This document shows, piece by piece, positions 53,170 through 64,000 of a DNA stretch of 64,000 bases. A model generated the notes under the pieces. The model worked only from the letters and a program-made list of their open reading frames with translations, made no database searches and was not told the origin of the DNA. Positions within the stretch are counted from its first letter, which is position 1, and every line of letters starts with the position of its first letter. The DNA is from Phycisphaerae bacterium (lineage in GTDB: Bacteria > Planctomycetota > Phycisphaerae > Sedimentisphaerales > UBA12454). The position numbers and the translations under genes are program-made. The stretch lies in the NCBI GenBank assembly GCA_041652575.1, contig JBAZHC010000001.1, positions 70,636 to 134,635 of the forward strand. The letters run 5' to 3'.

Positions 53170-56025
53170 ATGCAGAAATCTATAAAAGTTGTCGGGGCTT
53201 GCCAGCACAATCTTAAGAATATAAGTGTCGAGGTTCCTCGCGATAAATTTGTCGTTATTACCGGCATCAGCGGCTCCGGAAAAAGTTCGCTTGCGTTCGA
53301 TACGATATACGCCGAAGGTCAGCGAAAATATGTCGAGTCTTTAAGCGCCTACGCCCGTCAGTTTCTCGAACAGATGCAAAAACCTGATGTTGAGTACATC
53401 GAAGGTCTCCCCCCGACAATCGCGATTGAGCAGAGAAGCGCCGCCAGCAATCCCCGTTCGACCGTTGCCACGACAACCGAGATTTACGATTACTGCAGGG
53501 TTCTCTTCGCAAGGGCAGGCACGCCGCACTGCTGGATTTGCGGAAAAGAAATCGCCAGCCAGCATTCGACGCAAATTGTTGACAGCATAATGTCGCTGCC
53601 GCAGGAAACTAAGGTGCAGATTTGCGCTCCGCTTATCCGCGGCCAGAAAGGCGAGCACAAGGAAATCTTCATAGGGATTCAAAGCGAAGGTTTCGTGCGT
53701 GTCCGCGTTGACGGAATTATTTACGACGTAAAGAGTGTTCCAAGGCTGGACAAAAACAAAAAGCACGATATTGCCGCTGTTATCGACAGGCTTATTATAA
53801 AAGATACGGTACGAATTCGTCTTGCGGATTCTGTTGAAGCTGCGCTGAAGATTGGCGAAGGCCTGATATTTGTAATGGTTCAGGAGCCCAGCGACGGCAA
53901 ACAAAACGGGGGCTCCGGAGGGTGGCGCGACCTTGTATTCAGCGAAAAATTCGCCTGCAACGAGCATCCTGAAGCATCTCTCGAGGAACTTTCGCCGAGA
54001 CTTTTCAGTTTTAACAGTCCTTACGGCGCCTGCGGAAGCTGCGATGGCCTTGGAACGATACTCGAATTTGACGAAGACCTGATTGTGCCGGACAGAAATC
54101 TTTCCCTTGAAAACGGGGCAATCGACGCCTGGCGCAAGGGCGGCAAGAGAATGAATATTTTCTACAGCAGATTGATAATGAAATTCTGCAGAGATTTCGA
54201 AATAAGCAAACAGACGCCTTTTTTAAAGATACCTACTGACATAAAAAAAATTCTTATGCACGGTACTACGGAAGAAGACGAAAAAAAATTCGGGACATAT
54301 TTTGAAGGAGTTATGCCGAATCTTGACAAGAGATGGAAAAATACTTCCAGCGAGTATGTCAAGGCCCGGCTCCACAGCTATCTTTCCGAGCAGCCGTGCA
54401 GAACCTGCAACGGCGCAAGACTCCGCAAAGAGGCCGTCGCTGTCACCATAGGCGATAAAAACATAAACGAAATTGCCCGGATGAGCGTTGAAGAATCGCA
54501 GAAATTTTTTAGCGAGCTTAAATACGAAGGCGAAAAAGCCCTTATCGCCGTCCAGCCGCTAAAGGAAATAAAAGCAAGATTGAAATTTCTTGTCGACGTT
54601 GGCCTGGGTTATATTACTCTTGACCGCAGAAGCGGAACATTAAGCGGCGGAGAGGCCCAGCGTATAAGACTTGCCACGCAGGTCGGCAGCGGACTTGTCG
54701 GCTGCTGTTATGTCCTCGACGAACCGACCATCGGCCTGCACAGACGCGATAACGACAGGCTGCTCGGCATATTAAGAAAACTGACTGACATAGGAAATAC
54801 AGTTCTTGTTGTCGAACACGATGAAGATGTTATCAAAAGCGCCGATTATGTAATTGATATCGGTCCGGCTGCCGGCGACCACGGCGGAGAACTTATCGCG
54901 CAGGGGTCTGTAAAGGATATATGTGCGGCTCCGCGTTCCATGACAGGCGATTATCTTTCCGGCAGAAAAAAAATCGAACTGCCCGCAAGAAGACGAAAAG
55001 TCAGGATGAATCACTGCATTGAAATCAAAGGTGCCTGCGAAAATAATCTGAAAAATATCGACGTTAAATTTCCCCTCGGCGTTTTTACCTGTGTTACAGG
55101 CGTTTCAGGCTCGGGCAAAAGTACGCTCGTTACTGAAATTCTCCTGAAAGGACTTTGGAGAAAATTATATTACTCCGGCGCCAAACCCGGCAAACACAAA
55201 AACATCCTTGGCACAAGTCAGATTGACAAGGTTATAGAAATCGACCAGTCGCCGATTGGCAAAACCCCTCGAAGCAATCCCGTTACCTACACTGGCGTAT
55301 TCGACCTTATAAGGCAGTTATTTGCCAAGACCCGTGAAGCTCGAATCAGAGGCTATAGCGCCGGCAGGTTCAGTTTTAATATCAAAGGCGGCAGATGCGA
55401 ACACTGCCAGGGCCAGGGCACCAAAAAAATAGAGATGCACTTTTTGCCGGACGTTTATGTTATCTGTCAGCAGTGTAAGGGCAGTAAATACAATCCTGAA
55501 ACGCTTCAGATTACATATAAAGGCAAATCGATTGCCGATGTTCTCGATATGCGGATTGAGGAGTCGCTGAAGTTTTTCGCGAATTTCCCGAAGGTTGTTC
55601 GGCTGCTCAAAACCTTAAGCGACGTCGGCCTCGGTTATATGCAGCTTGGTCAATCCTCGACGACTCTTTCCGGCGGCGAAGCGCAGCGAGTCAAACTTGC
55701 CGCCGAGCTCGGCAAAACTTCGACAGGTCATACGTTATATCTTCTCGATGAGCCGACAACCGGTCTGCACTTTGCCGATATTCATAATTTGCTGAACGTG
55801 CTGCAGAGATTATGCGACCTCGGCAATACCGTAATTGTAATTGAGCACAATCTCGATGTTATAAAACTGGCTGATTATATTATTGACCTTGGCCCCGAAG
55901 GCGGCCAGGCCGGCGGAAATGTTATCGCCACCGGCTCGCCAGAGGAAATTCTGAAATTCAAAATGAGCCATACTGCCGAATATCTCAGACAATATCTCAA
56001 TAACCGGCAGAAAAAGGACCAATAG
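53170..56025 (+). CDS. uvrA: Excinuclease ABC subunit A
   Basis: 951 aa with two ABC modules ([12 protein letters not shown] and [10 protein letters not shown]), zinc-finger cysteines, and two copies of LSGGEAQR. Confidence 0.97.
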
Positions 56026-57089
56026 TGAAAACATTTACGACGCTTCAATGGACCGGCGATATCAATGGCTGTCTCGAACTGACGGACCAGCGAAAACTTC
56101 CCGCAGAATTTATCACGATACAATGCAAAACCACGGAACAATTATTTAACGCGATAAAAACCCTTGCCGTCAGGGGAGCCCCTGCAATCGGAGTTGCCGC
56201 CGGTTTTGGTATTTGCCTTGCGGCACAGCAGACAGAAAATTTAAAACTTTCAGACGCGGTAAAATATATTGAAGAGCAGGCTGATTTTCTTTCGAAATCG
56301 AGACCGACCGCGGTAAATCTATTTTGGGCCCTTGAAAGAATGAAAAAAACAGTCTGTGATTTCGCCGAAAAAAATCCAAACGCTGAAATTGATGATATGA
56401 GAAAATGCTTATTGAGCCAGGCGCAGAAGATTTACGATGAAGATGTAGAAATGTGCCGCAGGATAGGTCTCAATGGCGAAAAATTTATACCTGCCGGCGG
56501 AGCGATTCTGACGCATTGTAACGCCGGCGCTCTTGCCACGGCAGGCGATGGTACGGCAATTGCGCCGATATTTGAGGCGCAGAGAAAAGGAAAAAAATTT
56601 AAAGTCTATGCCGATGAGACAAGACCGCTTCTGCAGGGCGCAAGACTAACGGCATGGGAACTTAAACAGGCCGGCATCGATGTTACACTTATCTGCGACA
56701 ATATGGCGGGGACGTTAATGAAGGATGGAAAAATAAATGCCGTAATTGTCGGCGCAGACCGGATAACGGCCAATGGCGATACCGCAAATAAAATCGGAAC
56801 TTATTCTTTAAGTGTTCTCGCCAAAACGCACAATATACCGTTTTATGTCGCTGCGCCGTCAAGCACCTTCGATTTAAAATCGAAAAACGGCAGTCAAATC
56901 CCGATTGAGCAGAGAGAGCCTGACGAAGTGCTTAAGTTTATGGATGTTCAGATTGCACCTGCGGGCGTAAATGTGTATAATCCTGCTTTTGACGTAACGC
57001 CCGCGGAAAATATCACGGCGATAATTACTGAAAAAGGTGTTGTCCAGTGGCCGACAGAAGAAAAAATCCGAAAAATGCTAAGCCTTTAA
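56025..57089 (+). CDS. mtnA: S-methyl-5-thioribose-1-phosphate isomerase
   Basis: eIF-2B alpha/beta/delta-like fold with VRGAPAIGVAA, HCNAGALAT, ADETRP.LQGARLTAWEL and GADRI.ANGD.ANKIGTY. Confidence 0.9.
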   Translation: MKTFTTLQWTGDINGCLELTDQRKLPAEFITIQCKTTEQLFNAIKTLAVRGAPAIGVAAGFGICLAAQQTENLKLSDAVKYIEEQADFLSKSRPTAVNLFWALERMKKTVCDFAEKNPNAEIDDMRKCLLSQAQKIYDEDVEMCRRIGLNGEKFIPAGGAILTHCNAGALATAGDGTAIAPIFEAQRKGKKFKVYADETRPLLQGARLTAWELKQAGIDVTLICDNMAGTLMKDGKINAVIVGADRITANGDTANKIGTYSLSVLAKTHNIPFYVAAPSSTFDLKSKNGSQIPIEQREPDEVLKFMDVQIAPAGVNVYNPAFDVTPAENITAIITEKGVVQWPTEEKIRKMLSL

Positions 57090-58846
57090 AGCAACCTCTT
57101 TCTCCCCAGCTTCTATTGCAGACAGCGGCAAGGGAAAAACGCGTCGATATTTTTTTGTTCCTGCTGCTGCTCTGTTTCGGTCTTTATCAGGCCATTCTGT
57201 ATTGGGGACATCAGGCTGTGCCGCATTTCGATTCATATTGTTTTCCTTTTGTAGGTCATAAAATACTGAGCTTTGAGCTTCCTGAAGATTTCAAAAGAAC
57301 GCCTCTTGTCGGGATATTGCAGATATGGCTTGGAAAAATATCCGGCGGACAATGTCCGGACTTTACCGGCGGCTGGCTTTTGAATTCAATTTCTCATATT
57401 TTAACCGTTATCTTTTTGTGGCTGGCGGCGAAAAGAGTCATCGGCCGAAACGCCGTCTGGTTTGCGGTTATCGCCATTATTAATCCGTTCGGCCTGCAGT
57501 TATTGACCGAAGCCATCGCCGAAACTCCGATGCTGTTTTTTATCTGGATTACGCTTTATTTAATTTTTATCAGGTCGAAATGGACCTATCTTTTCGCCTC
57601 GCTTGCGACAATGGTGCGTTATGAATGTGCCGCACTCATAGCGGGCATGTTTGTTTTGGAAATGATTGAAGGTAAAAATAAAAAAGAGCGGCTGATGGCT
57701 TTTGGTTATGCCGCCGCCGCTTCGATACCGCTTGCTGTTTGGATGCTCGGAACTTTTCTTAGCAGCAATCTCGGCGCCACTCACTATCTTAATATATTTA
57801 AAAAGGATTATACCTCGCAGTTTGTCGAGGGCGTCCAGAACAGAACAGGCTTTTTAATGCATGCCAACATTCTATGGCAGGTCGGTTTCCTCCCGCTCTT
57901 TCAGCCTTCTCCTGCGGCAGGCGGAACTCTTGCTAAAGGGCTTTTAATTGCCAACCAGGTTATTACGGTTATCACTTTCCTGTTCGGTACTGTTTACGGT
58001 CTTTATAAAAAACAGTGGAACATACTCGTACTGCTTATCTTCCTTCTGCCGTATTTCTGGATTCATTCCAAATACCCTTATCCGATTCACAGGTATCACG
58101 CGACTATTTTCGCGATGGTTATGCTTATATGTATTTACGGTATTATCAGTTTCTGGAAACTGGTAAAAGACAAACTGCCGAAACCGGCCGTAATCGCGTC
58201 GCAGCTTCTCGTTTCGGTAATAGCGATTATCTGGATTATGATTTTATGGGGTTATCTGCCGCGAATAGCGCCGATGAGCAAGGTAAGCGTTTCTCTCCCG
58301 TACATCGCGATACTGGCGGCCTTTATGGTTTTTGCCGTCGAAAGTTTCGCTTACAAAACAAAGCTGATTACTAATTTGGTCGTTCTGATATTAATGATTC
58401 TTATGATTGTTTCCAACCAGTTTGTCGTGGCGCAGGTTGTCGGCAACGGCGAAAGAGATTTGGAATTTAAATATCTTGCCGAATGGTACCGCCAGAACGC
58501 AAAGCCCGGCGAAAAGCTCGTTACTACCGTTCCGGTTATTCTTGAGATTCTTGCCCCGCAGTACAAAGACGATTTTATTCATACCAATACGTTTGATGCC
58601 AATAATCCCAATGATTTCGTAATGGAATGCTACAAAAGAAATATTACTTATGTCGCCTGGGATTCGAGAGAAGGCCTTAACCCCACCGACCATTATTACA
58701 AATACTGGAAAATGTCAAACATCGCACCTCTTGCCGTCGGCCGTGATATCGGCCCTTATCAGTTCATCACGCAATTAAGAGTCAATCAGCGGAGATATAT
58801 TAATCTCTACCGTCTAAGACCTCTGTCTGAAGTGATGCAAAAATAA
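57047..58846 (+). CDS. Polytopic membrane protein, possibly a GT-C-type glycosyltransferase
   Basis: About 12 or more hydrophobic segments are followed by a ~130-aa soluble tail. No catalytic motif was verified. The GTG start overlaps the mtnA end. Confidence 0.5.
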   Translation: MADRRKNPKNAKPLKQPLSPQLLLQTAAREKRVDIFLFLLLLCFGLYQAILYWGHQAVPHFDSYCFPFVGHKILSFELPEDFKRTPLVGILQIWLGKISGGQCPDFTGGWLLNSISHILTVIFLWLAAKRVIGRNAVWFAVIAIINPFGLQLLTEAIAETPMLFFIWITLYLIFIRSKWTYLFASLATMVRYECAALIAGMFVLEMIEGKNKKERLMAFGYAAAASIPLAVWMLGTFLSSNLGATHYLNIFKKDYTSQFVEGVQNRTGFLMHANILWQVGFLPLFQPSPAAGGTLAKGLLIANQVITVITFLFGTVYGLYKKQWNILVLLIFLLPYFWIHSKYPYPIHRYHATIFAMVMLICIYGIISFWKLVKDKLPKPAVIASQLLVSVIAIIWIMILWGYLPRIAPMSKVSVSLPYIAILAAFMVFAVESFAYKTKLITNLVVLILMILMIVSNQFVVAQVVGNGERDLEFKYLAEWYRQNAKPGEKLVTTVPVILEILAPQYKDDFIHTNTFDANNPNDFVMECYKRNITYVAWDSREGLNPTDHYYKYWKMSNIAPLAVGRDIGPYQFITQLRVNQRRYINLYRLRPLSEVMQK

Positions 58847-58894
58847 ATGTCATTTCGACCGGAGTGAAGCGCAGCGGAGAAATCTATTTAAATT

Positions 58895-60223
58895 TTATAA
58901 TTTCTTATTTTTATAATTATTCCACCAATTCTGCCATGCCGCTTTATCAGTGCGATAAGTTCGCGTTAATGGCATCTTCACACCTGTAAGTTTTTCAAGA
59001 GCCTTATTTATAGCACCGGCTCCGCCCTCTGATTCTTTATCTATAACATCTATAAGAACAGGCACATCTTGTAAATTACCGCATACTGCCAGCGAATAGG
59101 CCAAATTGGGGCCATAGCCGCAGTCTGCATATTTTAGTTCCTTCAGCAGGGTTATCGTTTGTTCTCTTGCGCCAAGCGGCCCCAACATTTCTGCCCAGAA
59201 ATATACATCATGCACCATTTTCATTGGGTCTTTTTTAATTTTTCTGATTTCTTCAACAAGTCTGTCCGCCAATTCATTACGGAGTTTTTGTTTGTCAGGC
59301 AAATCCATTGTTTTCCATATAAACCACGCACACGCAAGACGACAACCATCAGGCCCATCCGGAGTACTTCTGTCAAGGACGTGAGGTATTAACTGCTCTG
59401 GCGCTAAATCAGCAAAACGCGTATCTGTCGGCGGTTCAGTTGGATTAGGATACGGACAATTTCTTGCCTTTGTCTTTTCTTCTTTATTCTGCCCGGCAGA
59501 ATCAAAAGAAGGCACTATTGCAGCTTTAAAGGTAGTTTTGTCAACCATCACATACGACACTTTGCCGAGGTAATTTCGCCACGTTGTATTTTCTACGATA
59601 TAATATTTTTCTCCTTCATAAATAATACTCATACCCCCTTTGATAATCTCCGATGCAGCTTTGATTATTTTGTCGTACCTTTCATTCTGATTAGGGTCTT
59701 TGGAATCAGGGTGTAATCGGTTTAATTTTTCATAAGGGCTTACCGGGCTTCTCTGTTCCTGGCCGATGATAACAGGCAGGTTGTTCGAATCCTCCAGTTG
59801 AAAATTAAATACTCTTCCTTTAAGATAAGGAAACGGCGTCTTCTTAAGCATAATTTTGGATTCGGGGGCAGGATAAGTATCGTAACAAATAAAGTTAAGT
59901 TCTTTATTGTTCCACCGGCCAACGGTATTTTTTATGATTCCGCATTTTATAAGATACCAGGATTTCTCCCAGTCGCCCTCTGTGGCAGTTGCGTACTCCT
60001 GCATATCCGCGACATATACCAGAAACTCTATATCGGCTTGTCCGTCTTTAGGCGCCAGGTCAAATGGTATGGGTTTATTTTTCGGCAGATAAGCGTTCAC
60101 CGCCTCCGGCGGCGCGGGAATATTGCTGTCAGTGGGAATATCTTTTGCAAAGACGAAAGCGGAAGTCAGAATTATTAAAATAAAAATCGCCGAAAGTTCT
60201 GAATGCTTATTTTTCATTTTCAC
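58895..60223 (-). CDS. Hypothetical secreted protein
   Basis: 442-aa ORF with an N-terminal signal-like segment (SAIFILIILTSAFVFA). Composition is AT-rich and no family was recognised. Confidence 0.55.
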   Translation of the reverse strand: MKMKNKHSELSAIFILIILTSAFVFAKDIPTDSNIPAPPEAVNAYLPKNKPIPFDLAPKDGQADIEFLVYVADMQEYATATEGDWEKSWYLIKCGIIKNTVGRWNNKELNFICYDTYPAPESKIMLKKTPFPYLKGRVFNFQLEDSNNLPVIIGQEQRSPVSPYEKLNRLHPDSKDPNQNERYDKIIKAASEIIKGGMSIIYEGEKYYIVENTTWRNYLGKVSYVMVDKTTFKAAIVPSFDSAGQNKEEKTKARNCPYPNPTEPPTDTRFADLAPEQLIPHVLDRSTPDGPDGCRLACAWFIWKTMDLPDKQKLRNELADRLVEEIRKIKKDPMKMVHDVYFWAEMLGPLGAREQTITLLKELKYADCGYGPNLAYSLAVCGNLQDVPVLIDVIDKESEGGAGAINKALEKLTGVKMPLTRTYRTDKAAWQNWWNNYKNKKL

Positions 60224-60256
60224 TCCCTCTGAGACCGATGGCTATAAGTACTTATT

Positions 60257-61015
60257 TTATACGGTCTTGAAGATATTGAATTTGGCCAGTTGGAGTTTTT
60301 GAAGAACAAACTGCAGCATTGTGAAAAGCGTCAGCAGACCGTATCTTGTACTACGTGAAAAATTAATGCTCGACGCCTCTTTGAAATATCTGCACGGCAC
60401 GGGGGCATCGGCGATTTTAAATCCGAAATACGCCGCCTGCGCCAGCATTTGCGAATCGAACACAAAATCGTCCGAATTTTTATGATATGGTATTTTTTCC
60501 AGTACCGCTCGTTTATAAACTCTGAATCCGCTGTGGAAGTCGCCCAGGTTCTGGCCCAGTATAAAGTTTTCGGTAATAGTCAGCATTCTGTTCGCTAAAT
60601 ATTTATATACCGGCATACCTGAACTTATCGTTTCAGCTCTTGTGCGGATTCTGCTGCCGAGCATAAAATCGCAAACGCCGGTCTGCAAAAAGCCGATGAA
60701 ATACGGAATCAACCTGCCATCGTATTGGTAATCGGGATGAAGCATCACGACAATATCGGCTCCTTTTTTCAGTGCCGCGTCATAGCAGGTTTTTTGATTT
60801 GCGCCGTAGCCCCCGTTTTTTTCTCGTCGAATTACCGTCAGCCCAAGCCTCTCTGCAATCTCAACCGTATTGTCCTTGCTGCAGTCGTCCACCAGAATAA
60901 TATCTTTGCGGAATTGTTCCGGAATATCGTTGACAGTATTCTCCACCGTAGAGCCCGCGTTATACGCAGGCATAACTATTATAGTTTTGGGCGGATTGTT
61001 AGCGTTTGTATCCAA
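60257..61015 (-). CDS. GT2 glycosyltransferase, polyprenyl-phosphate sugar synthase-like (Dpm1/ArnC type)
   Basis: Contains [10 protein letters not shown]...[11 protein letters not shown]...GYGANQ and a C-terminal hydrophobic segment. Confidence 0.8.
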
Positions 61016-61030
61016 TGAAAAGCCGACTCC

Positions 61031-61291
61031 TCATTTTACCGCGACAACTTCCTTAACCTCCGGAACACGCTGCTTCAAAAGCCGCTCAACCCCCATCTTC
61101 AACGTCATGGCCGCGCCAGGACAACCCTTGCAGGCACCCTGAAGCCGAACCTTAACCGTATTGTCAGAGGTAAGTTCCACAAATTCTATATCGCCGCCGT
61201 CATTCTGCAACATCGGCCTAATGCCGTCAATTACTTCTATCACCTTGTCATTTATGGACTTATCGCCATGGCAACCGCAATTTTCACACAT
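61031..61291 (-). CDS. NifU-like C-terminal-domain Fe-S scaffold/carrier protein
   Basis: Contains DGGDIEFVE...VRLQGACKGCPGAAMTLK. Confidence 0.85.
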   Translation of the reverse strand: MCENCGCHGDKSINDKVIEVIDGIRPMLQNDGGDIEFVELTSDNTVKVRLQGACKGCPGAAMTLKMGVERLLKQRVPEVKEVVAVK

Positions 61292-61607: not shown

Positions 61608-61630
61608 AGCCACTAAGCCACTAAGACGAA
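61608..61630. repeat. Family A half-element (agccactaagccactaagacgaa)
   Basis: It has the same CCAC-TAAG periodic arm as in the pilus locus, followed by the family's usual aaaaaatatttaaaaa loop. The right arm is degenerate. Confidence 0.55.
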
Positions 61631-61651: not shown

Positions 61652-61679
61652 TTGACTAAATAAAAAAACACGATAAACT
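61652..61679 (+). promoter_or_regulatory. Candidate sigma70 promoter of the E2/E1/JAB operon (TTGACT, 16-nt spacer, TAAACT)
   Basis: TTGACT lies at 61652-61657 and TAAACT at 61674-61679, about 45 nt upstream of the first ATG. The aaggag RBS is at 61712-61717. Confidence 0.45.
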
Positions 61680-61701
61680 GCACAATCGTATTAATTGTAC
61701 A
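61679..61701. promoter_or_regulatory. Candidate operator: inverted repeat tgcacaat-N7-attgtaca
   Basis: The 8-bp arms are complementary at 7 of 8 positions. The repeat abuts the putative -10 box. Confidence 0.35.
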
Positions 61702-61723
61702 TATTTAACTTAAGGAGCAAGAT

Positions 61724-61939
61724 ATGGCCAAAAAACCGACAATTGAAGAATTGGAAGCTATTTTAGATAAGGAAGAAGAAACGCCAATCGAAATACTTCC
61801 GAATGGCGAAATCCGTGCAAAAGGCCAGACAAATTCAAGTGAATTGGCCGGAAAAAAACCACTAACAATGCGTGAAAATCTTGGCGGCGAATATTCTTTT
61901 AATAGGTTTAGATATGGACATTATACGTATTCAAAATGA
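61724..61939 (+). CDS. 71-aa protein with an internal Leu-Gly-Gly (residues 53-55); candidate modifier or substrate of the adjacent conjugation enzymes
   Basis: A strong RBS (aaggag) with 6-nt spacing, and first position in the operon. It has ...TMRENLGG followed by a 16-aa tail. It overlaps the next gene's ATG by 26 nt. Confidence 0.55.
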   Translation: MAKKPTIEELEAILDKEEETPIEILPNGEIRAKGQTNSSELAGKKPLTMRENLGGEYSFNRFRYGHYTYSK

Positions 61940-62291
61940 GTTCAAAGAAGCTCAGGAATATTTCTCATATATTGAGTTGCATCCAACATCTGATGGAAAG
62001 CTTTATGTAAAAAGCGCAATTCAATCTTCTTTTACTAATTATTATATTTTAAAAATTGTTTTTCCGGATAGTTACCCATATTCGATGCCAAGTGTTTATA
62101 TTGAAAAACCAGTGATAAATTCTTCGCCTCATCGTTATATGGAAGGAAATATTTGTTATTTACATCCGACTATGTGGAATCCGGGAATTCATAATCTTTC
62201 ATTTGTGCTTCAGCGTGCTGCTAAATGGTTAGCTAAATACGAGGTTTGGAAGAATAGCAATAAATGGCCGGGAGCACAAATTGTACATTAA
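61914..62291 (+). CDS. UBC/E2-like protein 1
   Basis: N-terminal helix RIQNEFKE, then FPDSYPYSMPSVYI, then HRYMEGNICYL...WNP. This parallels the E2 layout FP..YP...P, HPN-loop, catalytic Cys, W.P. Confidence 0.75.
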   Translation: MDIIRIQNEFKEAQEYFSYIELHPTSDGKLYVKSAIQSSFTNYYILKIVFPDSYPYSMPSVYIEKPVINSSPHRYMEGNICYLHPTMWNPGIHNLSFVLQRAAKWLAKYEVWKNSNKWPGAQIVH

Positions 62292-62302
62292 AGGAAATTT
62301 TT

Positions 62303-62824
62303 ATGCATTTAGATTTTAATACCTTATCTATGATGAAATTAAGAAGTTCTCCGGGGGAGGCTCTCGATAAAGTATCTAAAGAAGGCAAGGCCTTTATTAT
62401 CGAAAGAAATGGTCACCAAGAAGCCTGCCTGGTTCCTGTTTGGTATTTTTTGCCTGATATTCCAAAAGATAGAATTAGTAATGAGTTAGAAATATTACAC
62501 CAAAAAGGAGAAAAACCTTCATTAAGGTTTTCTGATAATCATGAATTGGAAATCTTGTTTAAAGAATGTTTAATGAATTATGAAATAACAATTAGAATTG
62601 TTCTTCCTCATGGATATCCAAACAACGTCCCGAAAATCTATGCTTCGCCTATTAGAAAAGATGCACCCCACTTATGGCATGATGGTGCTTTATGCATTTT
62701 TGGAATTATGGCTACTTGGAATCCTGGTAAACACAATATCGGTACTGTATTAGACCTAAGTCGAAAATGGCTTTCGAAATATAGCGAATGGGAAAAAAAT
62801 GAAATTTGGCCAGTTGAAGGTTGA
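62303..62824 (+). CDS. Phd/YefM-like N-terminal domain fused to UBC/E2-like domain 2
   Basis: The N-terminal LRSSPGEALDKVSKEGKAFIIERNGHQEACLVPVWYF is antitoxin-like. The C-terminal LPHGYPNNVPKIYA...HLWHDGALCIF...WNPGKHN is paralogous to E2-like 1. The aaaggaaa RBS precedes the ATG at 62303. Confidence 0.75.
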   Translation: MHLDFNTLSMMKLRSSPGEALDKVSKEGKAFIIERNGHQEACLVPVWYFLPDIPKDRISNELEILHQKGEKPSLRFSDNHELEILFKECLMNYEITIRIVLPHGYPNNVPKIYASPIRKDAPHLWHDGALCIFGIMATWNPGKHNIGTVLDLSRKWLSKYSEWEKNEIWPVEG

Positions 62825-62832
62825 AATAAAAA

Positions 62833-63678
62833 ATGAACGAAGAAAAAACATTTACACGAATAGAAAAATTATTTGATATTGGATTACTTAATAATAGCAG
62901 AATTCTTATTGTTGGGTGTGGTTCAGGTGGCGGTAATCTGGCTTTACAATTAGCTATGTCTGGTATCAAAAATTTTACACTAGTAGACAAGGATGTACTT
63001 GAGATAGAAAATGTCATTAGGCATGTTTGTGGAAGAAAATTTATAGGCAAAAGGAAAGTTGATGCACTTGAGGAAGTTTTATTAGACAGAAATCCTGAGA
63101 TTAAAATAAGGAAGTTCGACGTAGATATAATGAACTTTGACCTTCTTGAATCTGAAATAAAAGCTCATACTTTAGTCGTTTTGGCTACCGACAATGAACC
63201 TTCTCGCTATTTAATTAACGATATTTGTGTGCATAATAATATTCCATTTGTAGTTGGACGAGTATTTACTCGTGGTATTGGTGGAGAAGTTTTTATTTAT
63301 CGCCCCAAAATAGGCGGTTGTTTAGCATGTTTAGAAAGTTTTCTGGGAAGAACCAAATATCGTCAGGGGATAAGAGAAATAGATTTGGTATCGGAGAAAG
63401 AAAGGGAACAAATGTATGGCATGGAAATAGCTGAAATAAAAGATTCCCCTGGCCTTAATGTTGATATATCTTTTATTACGGCCTTTCATACAAGATTTGC
63501 ACTTGACGCAATTGCTGAGACATTAAAAGTACGTCCTAAATATATGCAAGCTATTCCTGATAATTATATTATATGGGGGAATAGGCCAACGCCTCCTTTT
63601 ACAAAACATTTTCAAATTCAACGCTTTAACCTGCCACCACAGGAAGGATGCCAAATATGTTCGCAAGAAAAAAAATAA
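62833..63678 (+). CDS. ThiF/MoeB-type E1-like adenylating enzyme
   Basis: Contains ILIVGCGSGGGNLA, LVDKD, NVIRH and LATDN, plus the paired CxxC motifs CLAC and CQIC. Confidence 0.85.
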   Translation: MNEEKTFTRIEKLFDIGLLNNSRILIVGCGSGGGNLALQLAMSGIKNFTLVDKDVLEIENVIRHVCGRKFIGKRKVDALEEVLLDRNPEIKIRKFDVDIMNFDLLESEIKAHTLVVLATDNEPSRYLINDICVHNNIPFVVGRVFTRGIGGEVFIYRPKIGGCLACLESFLGRTKYRQGIREIDLVSEKEREQMYGMEIAEIKDSPGLNVDISFITAFHTRFALDAIAETLKVRPKYMQAIPDNYIIWGNRPTPPFTKHFQIQRFNLPPQEGCQICSQEKK

Positions 63679-64000
63679 ATAAGATTCCAGTTCAAATTTG
63701 TATTTGCAAAGATGTATTAAATTCGATTTTCGACGAATGCGATAAAAATGATATTGATGAAACTGGTGGTCGTATAATTGGATATTATAATCAAAATAGA
63801 AATAAATTAAATATCAATGTTTGTGGTTTAATTGCTTCTGGTCCAAATGCAAAAAGTTCACCAACGAGTTTTTTTCAAGATGGGATTTACCAAGAAAGTA
63901 TCTTTAGAAAATTAGAAGAAGAATATCCTAACATTGAACATCTTGGAAATTGGCATACGCATCATGTAAATGGTTTGCAAACCTTAAGCGGAGGAGATAT
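63657..64000 (+). CDS. JAMM/JAB (MPN+) metalloprotease, 3' end outside the window
   Basis: Hand translation gives MFARKKINKIPVQICI...DETGGRIIGYY...HLGNWHTHHVNGLQTLSGGD, which carries the E...HxH...SxxD metal site. It overlaps the E1 stop by 22 nt. It is absent from the ORF track because it has no stop in the window. Confidence 0.8.
   Translation, partial: MFARKKINKIPVQICICKDVLNSIFDECDKNDIDETGGRIIGYYNQNRNKLNINVCGLIASGPNAKSSPTSFFQDGIYQESIFRKLEEEYPNIEHLGNWHTHHVNGLQTLSGGD

Follow-up and report, generated by a model that had tools for sequence, protein, structure and literature searches.

Why should a ubiquitin-conjugating (E2) enzyme of a bacterium carry the DNA-binding domain of an antitoxin? 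The question is raised by a 64,000-nucleotide stretch of a Phycisphaerae bacterium (contig JBAZHC010000001.1, positions 70,636 to 134,635; hereafter the window), in which an open reading frame (ORF) at 62303-62824 of the forward strand encodes a 173-aa protein that we call Phd-E2. The initial annotation had described this protein as an E2-like domain fused to a Phd/YefM antitoxin-like N-terminal domain, and sequence profile, predicted fold and conservation all bore the description out. On these grounds the predicted product has a Phd/YefM-type domain at its N-terminus, without the toxin-binding tail found at the C-terminus of that family, followed by a Cys-bearing E2 of the type found in CBASS (anti-phage signalling systems that rely on cyclic oligonucleotides). 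It probably acts as a repressor of the gene cassette that encodes it. No paper on a Phd/YefM-E2 fusion or on the cassette was found, and the earlier remark that no characterised example is known holds in the literature searched. The two parts of the gene are as follows.

62303-62452, + strand: Phd/YefM-fold domain, residues 1-50, recognised by Pfam, conservation, AlphaFold2 and Foldseek; codon of the invariant Arg14 at 62342-62344.
62453-62824, + strand: conserved P51-D-I junction and E2 domain with the ubiquitin-conjugating (UBC) fold, residues ~55-173; codon of Cys131 at 62693-62695.

The gene runs from ATG 62303 to TGA 62822-62824, with AAGGAAA at 62291-62297, 6 nt 5' of the start codon. 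A longer reading from an upstream ATG at 62264 was unsupported; homologues begin at the same M-x-L-D-F.

The Pfam profile PhdYeFM_antitox aligned residues 7-46 of Phd-E2 to its positions 3-42 of 74. With the first 60 residues alone as query the match reached E=8.7e-5, and all 58 aligned homologues matched the profile at E<=1e-3 (best 6e-9). The window protein by itself fell under the gathering score. Residues 1-50 turned out to be the best-conserved part of the protein, not the poorly conserved linker whose finding was to have refuted the fusion: column entropy in the Phd-E2 alignment was lowest there (0.94), compared to 1.76 for residues 51-85 and 1.46 for the E2 core. R14, G18, L21, V24, E34, G37, A41, L43, V44 and P45 were invariant. 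AlphaFold2 assigned this domain the secondary structure beta1(5-9)-alpha1(10-15)-alpha2(17-27)-beta2(30-35)-beta3(38-43), and a separate model of residues 1-56 had a predicted local distance difference test score (pLDDT) of 91.8. When this model was compared with the PDB by Foldseek, the top 25 matches were all N-domains of Phd, YefM, RelB2 or VapB46, with template modelling (TM) scores of 0.64-0.75, root-mean-square deviations (rmsd) of 1.1-4.0 A and probabilities of 0.96-1.00. The E-values were modest (0.009-0.25) because the domain is short. Superposition on 4zlx, the N-terminal DNA binding domain of antitoxin Phd, gave an rmsd of 1.4 A and TM scores of 0.69/0.81. In the alignment, R10 of YefM, which is essential for DNA binding (PMC4803016), stands opposite the invariant R14 of Phd-E2. 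The C-terminal toxin-binding segment of the PF02604 family is not present in Phd-E2; the E2 fold begins at about residue 55.

The AlphaFold2 model of the full protein (pLDDT 90.8; predicted TM score, pTM, 0.81) contains the elements of an E2 fold: a helix at 55-67, a four-stranded meander, the Cys loop and a helix at 146-166. Foldseek matched the whole model to UFC1, the ubiquitin E2 variant (UEV) domain of Vps23, UBE2N and Cdc34 in the PDB at E-values of 2e-4 to 3e-3. PADLOC E2 models matched the sequence at E-values down to 5e-8, and a profile of the whole protein retrieved only E2 chains, weakly, from the PDB sequences, with Cys131 aligned to their catalytic-Cys region. Cys131 and H123 were each conserved at 97%, within the motif P122-H...G128-x-L-C131-x-x-G134...W139-N-P-G-x-H144. 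The earlier view of this part as a UBC-like paralogue of the upstream gene product with its Cys retained was therefore upheld. Two divergent representatives of Phd-E2 (P0132 and P0145) keep the Phd domain, with P or D standing in place of the lost E2 Cys. Judged from their sequences, Phd-E2 may be a non-catalytic regulator in some lineages.

The suggested database search for the same fusion and its phyletic spread returned 357 homologues of Phd-E2 from a large protein collection, distributed over many phyla. Nearly all were 172-182 aa long with the same two-part layout, and most of the 120 listed carried precomputed PF02604 and PF26395 (E2-CBASS) assignments. The protein had no match in NCBIfam or PHROGs, nor, with respect to a phage origin, in 50,697 phage records. 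Three long proteins, P0147 (5751 aa), P0187 (1580 aa) and P0208 (1023 aa), each matched short stretches of the query 7-14 times (query residues 51-102 or 56-102 in P0187 and P0147, and 2-53 in P0208); repeats in these proteins or an artefact of composition may account for this. Scanning a single genome for each species (~185,000) gave 68 loci, 66 of them with the full-length fusion. It occurred in Planctomycetota, Acidobacteriota, Alpha- and Gammaproteobacteria, Binatia, Gemmatimonadota, Omnitrophota, Elusimicrobiota, Verrucomicrobiota and Armatimonadota, as well as in one metagenome-assembled genome (MAG) of Methanosarcinales. Cultured hosts of the cassette are Bradyrhizobium genosp. A BDV5028, which has the fusion, and Mesorhizobium sp. 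AR10, where the cassette adjoins an IS30 element on the megaplasmid pMspAR10a (locus L075).

The databases name these homologues 'type II toxin-antitoxin system Phd/YefM family antitoxin' or 'prevent-host-death family protein'. At L075, the NCBI annotation pipeline PGAP calls the Phd-E2 homologue (119065-119595) a Phd/YefM antitoxin and the neighbouring paralogue 'ubiquitin-conjugating enzyme E2'. The antitoxin name leaves the E2 domain out of sight and is probably misleading; such labels may inflate counts of toxin-antitoxin systems.

Two sequence elements were found upstream of the first cassette gene.

61652-61679, + strand: sigma-70-like cassette promoter TTGACT-16 nt-TAAACT, agreeing with 9 of 12 consensus positions; a consensus match only.
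61677-61703, no strand assigned: operator-like motif ACTGCACAATCGTATTAATTGTACATA, the best match in the window to the position weight matrix (PWM) described below and conserved across loci.

TTGACA-like hexamers were enriched at the same place in related loci. The motif contains the cores TGCACA (61679-61684) and TGTACA (61696-61701) and, between them, a degenerate CGTATT (61687-61692). Its imperfect inverted repeat, TGCACAAT-N7-ATTGTACA, had been singled out in the initial annotation as a palindrome at 61679-61701. Taken alone, the palindrome proved weak: its arms match at 7/8 positions and share only 5 exact bases, and a repeat search of the window did not report it. It stands as part of a motif conserved across loci, and the element is significant only because of that conservation. 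Just upstream of the promoter, a perfect tandem direct repeat (AGCCACTA x2) occupies 61608-61623 inside a T/A-rich tract.

The motif was derived from the regions upstream of the first cassette gene in 62 non-identical loci. An initial pattern of three GYRY units 4-5 nt apart described only 18 of the 62 promoters and was replaced by k-mer enrichment and a PWM derived by expectation-maximisation. GTGCAA/TTGCAC was present in 30 of the 62 upstream regions compared to 2.3 expected (p about 1e-26), and ATTGCA likewise in 30 compared to 2.7 expected. The resulting PWM (14 bits) reads ACTGTGCAATTGTAnTAAT; its sites lie 30-55 nt upstream of the start codon, with the -10 box on one side and the ribosome-binding site on the other. 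In leave-one-out scans, for which near-identical sites were dropped from each training set and the whole ~10 kb locus was searched on both strands, 52 of the 62 loci had their best match at most 220 nt upstream of the first gene, where chance predicts 2.5% per locus. The best match in the 64-kb window was at 61677 with 21.9 bits, and the next best scored 11.9. The same DNA on its public contig (locus L001; a Phycisphaerae MAG with an identical Phd-E2, in which the operon extends past the window) scored 20.2 bits in the leave-one-out scan, rank 1 in the locus. In the Mesorhizobium plasmid locus, which lies outside the training set, the top two matches (22.9 and 20.7 bits) were 20-45 nt before the first gene and form an inverted repeat, GTGCAATT-N5-AATTGCAC. 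Successive YGYRCR cores were spaced 8 bp apart in 58% of cases, compared to 3.9% in the background, and inverted repeats were enriched relative to shuffled sequences.

This motif resembles the L/S operator of an established antitoxin gene, yefM of E. coli. The YefM protein binds TCATTGTACAATGA together with another TGTACA box, which covers the -10 region of its own promoter (PMC1802561). The best match in 10 kb of the K-12 genome to the PWM, which was built only from E2 cassettes, was exactly the yefM L repeat. Residues 11, 15 and 16 of the Phd domain co-vary with the operator type: SMTE-LR-xR proteins go with RTCGYRCGAC boxes and xMMx-LR-SS proteins with CTGTGCAATTGTA. This co-variation was largely independent of the G+C content of the locus (r=0.34). 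High-GC rhizobial loci keep the AT-rich operator, and base composition is thus no explanation for it. Searches with Pfam and NCBIfam gave no DNA-binding family match for any cassette protein other than Phd-E2, and the spread of the cassette over many phyla argues against a host-encoded regulator. A reading of the conserved 5' region as RNA was rejected: there was no Rfam match, and the GC-rich versions are loop-less perfect palindromes (e.g. GTGCGATCGCAC), which argues for recognition at the DNA level.

We believe that Phd-E2 probably binds the predicted operator at 61677-61703 as a dimer and represses its own cassette. In this mechanism the Phd domain would dimerise and bind the phased TGTACA-like boxes over the -10 end and the transcription start region, and Phd-E2 would repress the operon that encodes it, just as YefM and Phd repress theirs. 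The initial annotation had offered autoregulation of the operon by the E2 as one of three possibilities; the YefM-operator-like promoter motif, the invariant R14 and the protein-operator co-variation lend it substantial in-silico support. In Phd-E2 the E2 domain takes the position of the toxin-binding segment of antitoxins, and its state would therefore be expected to modulate operator binding. Candidate states, which are speculative, are a thioester with the small protein described below, auto-modification, and binding of E1 or of the second E2. Expression of the E1/E2/JAB machinery and of the MBL and patatin effectors described below would in this way, speculatively, be coupled to conjugation activity.

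The other genes of the cassette within the window are listed here.

61724-61939, + strand: small protein of 71 aa, the first cassette gene; its conserved core of 57 aa (61724-61894) ends in KPLTMRENLGGEY.
61914-62291, + strand: E2a (125 aa, with Cys81), the paralogous CBASS-type E2 that stands alone; matched by Pfam, PADLOC and PF26395.
62833-63678, + strand: ThiF/MoeB-type E1 adenylyltransferase, 281 aa; Pfam ThiF 7e-37, NCBIfam ThiF and MoeB, PADLOC E1-E2 models to 3e-34.
63657-64000, + strand: JAB/MPN metallopeptidase, cut by the window end; Prok-JAB 2.5e-4, PADLOC JAB 1.4e-14.

The order of small LGGEY protein, E2a, Phd-E2, ThiF-type E1, JAB peptidase and ComEC-type hydrolase of the metallo-beta-lactamase (MBL) fold was the same in essentially all loci. 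E2a matched Pfam UQ_con (6e-5) and Prok-E2_B (8e-3) and PADLOC E2 models at E-values down to 2e-12, and carried a precomputed PF26395 (E2-CBASS) assignment. Its motif is H73...C81-x-x-H84-P...W88-N-P-G-x-H93, of which C81, H73, H84, WNPG and H93 were conserved at 100% in 66 E2a sequences. The two paralogues differ directly after the Cys (62693-62704 compared to 62154-62168), where E2a has C-x-x-H84-P and Phd-E2 has C-x-x-G134; H84 and G134 are each conserved at 100%.

On the public contig the JAB protein is 314 aa long (L001 2099-3043). Only its first ~125 residues are JAB-like, and the C-terminal ~190 aa had no match in Pfam, NCBIfam or PDB sequences. Downstream of it follow the MBL hydrolase (277 aa; ComEC/Rec2 MBL domain match 4.7e-26), a PG_binding_1 protein and a membrane protein. 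An MBL-fold gene adjoined the cassette in 65 of the 73 loci fetched. A patatin-like phospholipase homologue was present in 29 of them, 25 times as the next gene after the MBL gene and on its strand. A DUF2207_C-like membrane protein was present in 13; the gene slot after the MBL gene is thus swappable (L001 3918-5211; L004 9350-10519; L075 9154-10335). Integrase, IS30 and Fic genes were also among the neighbours. To the left of the cassette (53170-61291) lie uvrA, methylthioribose-1-phosphate isomerase-like, membrane, glycosyltransferase and NifU-like genes, housekeeping-like and forming no obvious defence island as judged from ORF translations alone. The cassette is, in our view, most likely a mobile system directed against phages and a relative of 6A-MBL and type II CBASS, because of the PADLOC E2, E1-E2 and JAB matches, the weak 6A-MBL matches given below, the swappable last gene and the integrase, IS30 and Fic neighbours. 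All of the cassette, together with the operator motif and a bacterial-type TTGACA/-10 promoter, is present in a Methanosarcinales archaeon MAG (L008, JAIWAR010000002.1), reflecting either horizontal transfer or a binning error. An Acidobacteriaceae locus (L011 4800-5000) lacks the small gene and retains of E2a no more than the 3' end (...WPGAEVKH) in front of Phd-E2, and there is no operator match; this cassette looks truncated or disrupted.

The small protein opens the cassette in 67 of the 73 fetched loci. Its core ends in an invariant KPLTM(R/K)E(D/N)LGGEY, and 15 of the 67 copies stop exactly after LGGEY; the others continue into non-conserved tails, which in the window is a tail of 14 aa overlapping the E2a gene. 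Homologues number 696, all named 'hypothetical' and without a Pfam family. Identity among the 120 best listed of these was 75-91%, and the small protein is more conserved than the cassette enzymes. No family match was found for it in Pfam, NCBIfam, PADLOC or PHROGs. From its sequence, the small protein looks like the precursor of a very small ubiquitin- or Pup-style modifier and is a candidate for the conjugated species; at 57 aa it is probably too short for a beta-grasp fold. In two metagenomic sequences (P0189 and P0195) it is fused in frame to E2a, ...LGGEY-ARNLERIRREIK... By analogy with ubiquitin fusion precursors these fusions would need proteolytic release, or they may be sequencing or gene-calling artefacts.

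How well does autorepression by Phd-E2 stand against other explanations? Several points weigh against it. The Pfam PhdYeFM_antitox score of the window protein is 20.9 bits (E=3e-4) against a gathering score of 29.8, and a sequence profile of the N-terminal domain was not significant on its own against PDB chains (VapB46, 3dbo and 2odk at E=0.3-1.1); fold comparison carries the domain identification instead. The second DNA-binding arginine of YefM, R31, aligns with the invariant E34 and not with the neighbouring R35, and we do not claim an R31 equivalent for a residue out of register. The pTM of 0.81 suggests that the modelled Phd domain packs on the E2 domain, which could occlude the canonical dimer surface. 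Ten of the 62 loci have no top PWM match at the promoter, the cores are spaced 8 bp apart (17 bp between the two full cores in the window) compared to 12 bp in yefM, and both motif conservation and protein-operator co-variation are confounded by common descent. Finally, DNA binding could in truth reside in the C-terminal ~190 aa of the JAB protein. In another explanation, which we consider unlikely, the Phd-like domain does not bind DNA and serves only for dimerisation or for contacts with other proteins, and the motif is bound by another factor, for example the JAB C-terminal domain, which has no assigned family. The Phd-like domain might then hold together a homodimer of the E2, or be a docking module for E1, E2a or JAB. 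This agrees with the role of the Phd/YefM N-domain as the dimerisation domain in antitoxins (PMC4803016), with the R31 equivalent not being conserved in register and with the intramolecular interface suggested by the high pTM. However, the promoter motif is specifically YefM-operator-like, R14 (the equivalent of YefM R10) is invariant, and the residues flanking R14 co-vary with the operator sequence.

A toxin-antitoxin logic, in which Phd-E2 would neutralise the MBL or patatin effector, as the presumed toxin, by E2-fold binding or by conjugation of the small protein to it, and loss or inactivation of Phd-E2 on infection would free the effector, is compatible with autorepression and can coexist with it. 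The third possibility of the initial annotation, a toxin-antitoxin-like switch gated by conjugation, is likewise compatible with autorepression. The E2 domain does replace the Phd/YefM toxin-binding tail (the match ends at Pfam position 42 of 74, having begun at 3), effector-like MBL, patatin and membrane-protein genes lie downstream, and addiction-like behaviour of such cassettes was speculated on by Iyer et al. 2006 (PMC1779556). Yet no Doc, YoeB or RelE-type toxin family was found among the cassette genes, where the neighbours of Phd-E2 are E2a and E1. The gene order is not antitoxin followed by toxin; we regard this logic as quite improbable. We would give slightly less credence to Phd-E2 as a non-catalytic or specificity partner of E2a in the manner of Mms2-Ubc13, with the Phd domain serving only for oligomerisation. 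Such a UEV/E2-type pair had been another suggestion of the initial annotation. The two paralogous E2s are always adjacent, Phd-E2 lacks the His-Pro after its Cys, and the Cys is lost in the divergent P0132 and P0145. As originally put, however, the pair is disfavoured: the catalytic Cys is kept in both proteins (E2a C81 at 100%; Phd-E2 C131 at 97%, with its PH...G and WNPG-x-H flanks), so neither is a classical Cys-less UEV, and the conserved operator would be left unexplained. Homologues bear the name of a type II Phd/YefM antitoxin in RefSeq/PGAP, including the product name in Mesorhizobium pMspAR10a, and in JGI, but that Phd-E2 is simply such an antitoxin can hardly be right. An E2 fold with a conserved Cys makes up two thirds of the protein, a toxin gene is missing, and the gene is embedded in an E1/E2/JAB cassette.

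Returning to autorepression by Phd-E2, a wider scheme can be drawn around it. E1 would activate the C-terminus of the small protein for transfer by the E2s, and the role of JAB would be to trim precursors or to undo conjugation. It is a tentative and, in our estimate, rather doubtful proposal that the cassette is an undescribed conjugation system with a 57-aa LGGEY modifier (made with a disposable tail or as an E2a fusion) and an E2 that represses its own synthesis, whose charging or self-modification derepresses the effectors on infection. If true, transcription of the cassette would be switched by conjugation through a DNA-binding domain taken from an antitoxin.

The E1/E2/JAB systems of bacteria (6A-MBL, type II CBASS, Bil and Bub) are a current route to the origin and immune use of ubiquitin-like conjugation. 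What is new here is the combination of a defence-type E1/E2/JAB cassette with a putative Phd/YefM autorepressor, an architecture already present in the databases under antitoxin names. Phd-E2 provides a testable case of transcription wired to conjugation machinery, and the cassette offers a candidate modifier far smaller than any known ubiquitin-like protein (Ubl).

Among known systems, the antitoxin-repressors YefM and Phd (PF02604; E. coli YefM-YoeB and phage P1 Phd-Doc) share with Phd-E2 the N-terminal beta-alpha-alpha-beta-beta fold. The equivalent of the DNA-binding R10 of YefM is kept, and the operator-like element of the cassette, like the YefM operator, has TGTACA-type cores over the -10 region of its own operon. 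Phd-E2 differs in having a folded E2 domain in place of a toxin-binding segment, in the missing toxin gene and in cores 8 bp, not 12 bp, apart. Ubc13-Mms2 resembles the two cassette E2s as a pair of paralogous UBC-fold proteins that presumably cooperate, except that both cassette paralogues retain the Cys.

The 6A-MBL system (NF058523, NF058524) is operon type 6a of Iyer et al. 2006 (PMC1779556), later shown to be anti-phage according to PMC13276650 and bioRxiv 10.1101/2025.09.30.679545. Like the cassette it combines E2, E1 and JAB activities with an adjacent MBL-fold hydrolase, and its models were the best specific NCBIfam matches of the cassette JAB and MBL proteins. In 6A-MBL, however, E2-E1-JAB is one polypeptide in a two-gene operon, whereas the cassette has separate genes, a second E2, the Phd domain and the 57-aa LGGEY protein. 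The cap2_3 model NF058523 (cutoff 320 bits) matched the E1 with 53.5 bits (1.5e-14) and the JAB protein, encoded by a separate gene, with 44 bits (1e-11), and it matched neither cassette E2; the MBL protein scored 40.5 bits against the enzyme model NF058524 (cutoff 220). We rejected filing the cassette as 6A-MBL, with scores far under the cutoffs and a different architecture. By sequence comparison it is a split, expanded and distant relative of operon type 6a, not a member by curated criteria.

Bil (BilABCD) and Bub, like the cassette, have stand-alone E1, E2 and peptidase genes, a dedicated small modifier and defence contexts. Their modifiers are beta-grasp Ubls of one to three domains, whereas the candidate here has 57 aa and no family match. 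Bub forms oxyesters without a Cys, in contrast to the two cassette E2s, and the published descriptions of Bil and Bub that we found mention no DNA-binding domain on the E2, unlike the Phd domain of Phd-E2. Type II CBASS shares with the cassette the E1, E2 and JAB logic of Cap2/Cap3, in which a protein C-terminus is conjugated and JAB reverses the reaction; the cassette E2 falls in Pfam E2-CBASS, and patatin effectors occur in both. The cassette differs in having no cGAS/DncV-like nucleotidyltransferase (CD-NTase) and a 57-aa peptide as the candidate conjugated species. CBASS operons can carry dedicated repressors, according to bioRxiv 10.1101/2022.04.27.489752, and the CBASS regulators CapW and CapH/CapP are separate from the conjugation enzymes. 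In the described E1/E2/JAB systems, regulators, where known, are separate proteins; here the candidate regulator is an antitoxin-type DNA-binding module carried on the E2 itself, with a matching operator-like element at its own promoter.

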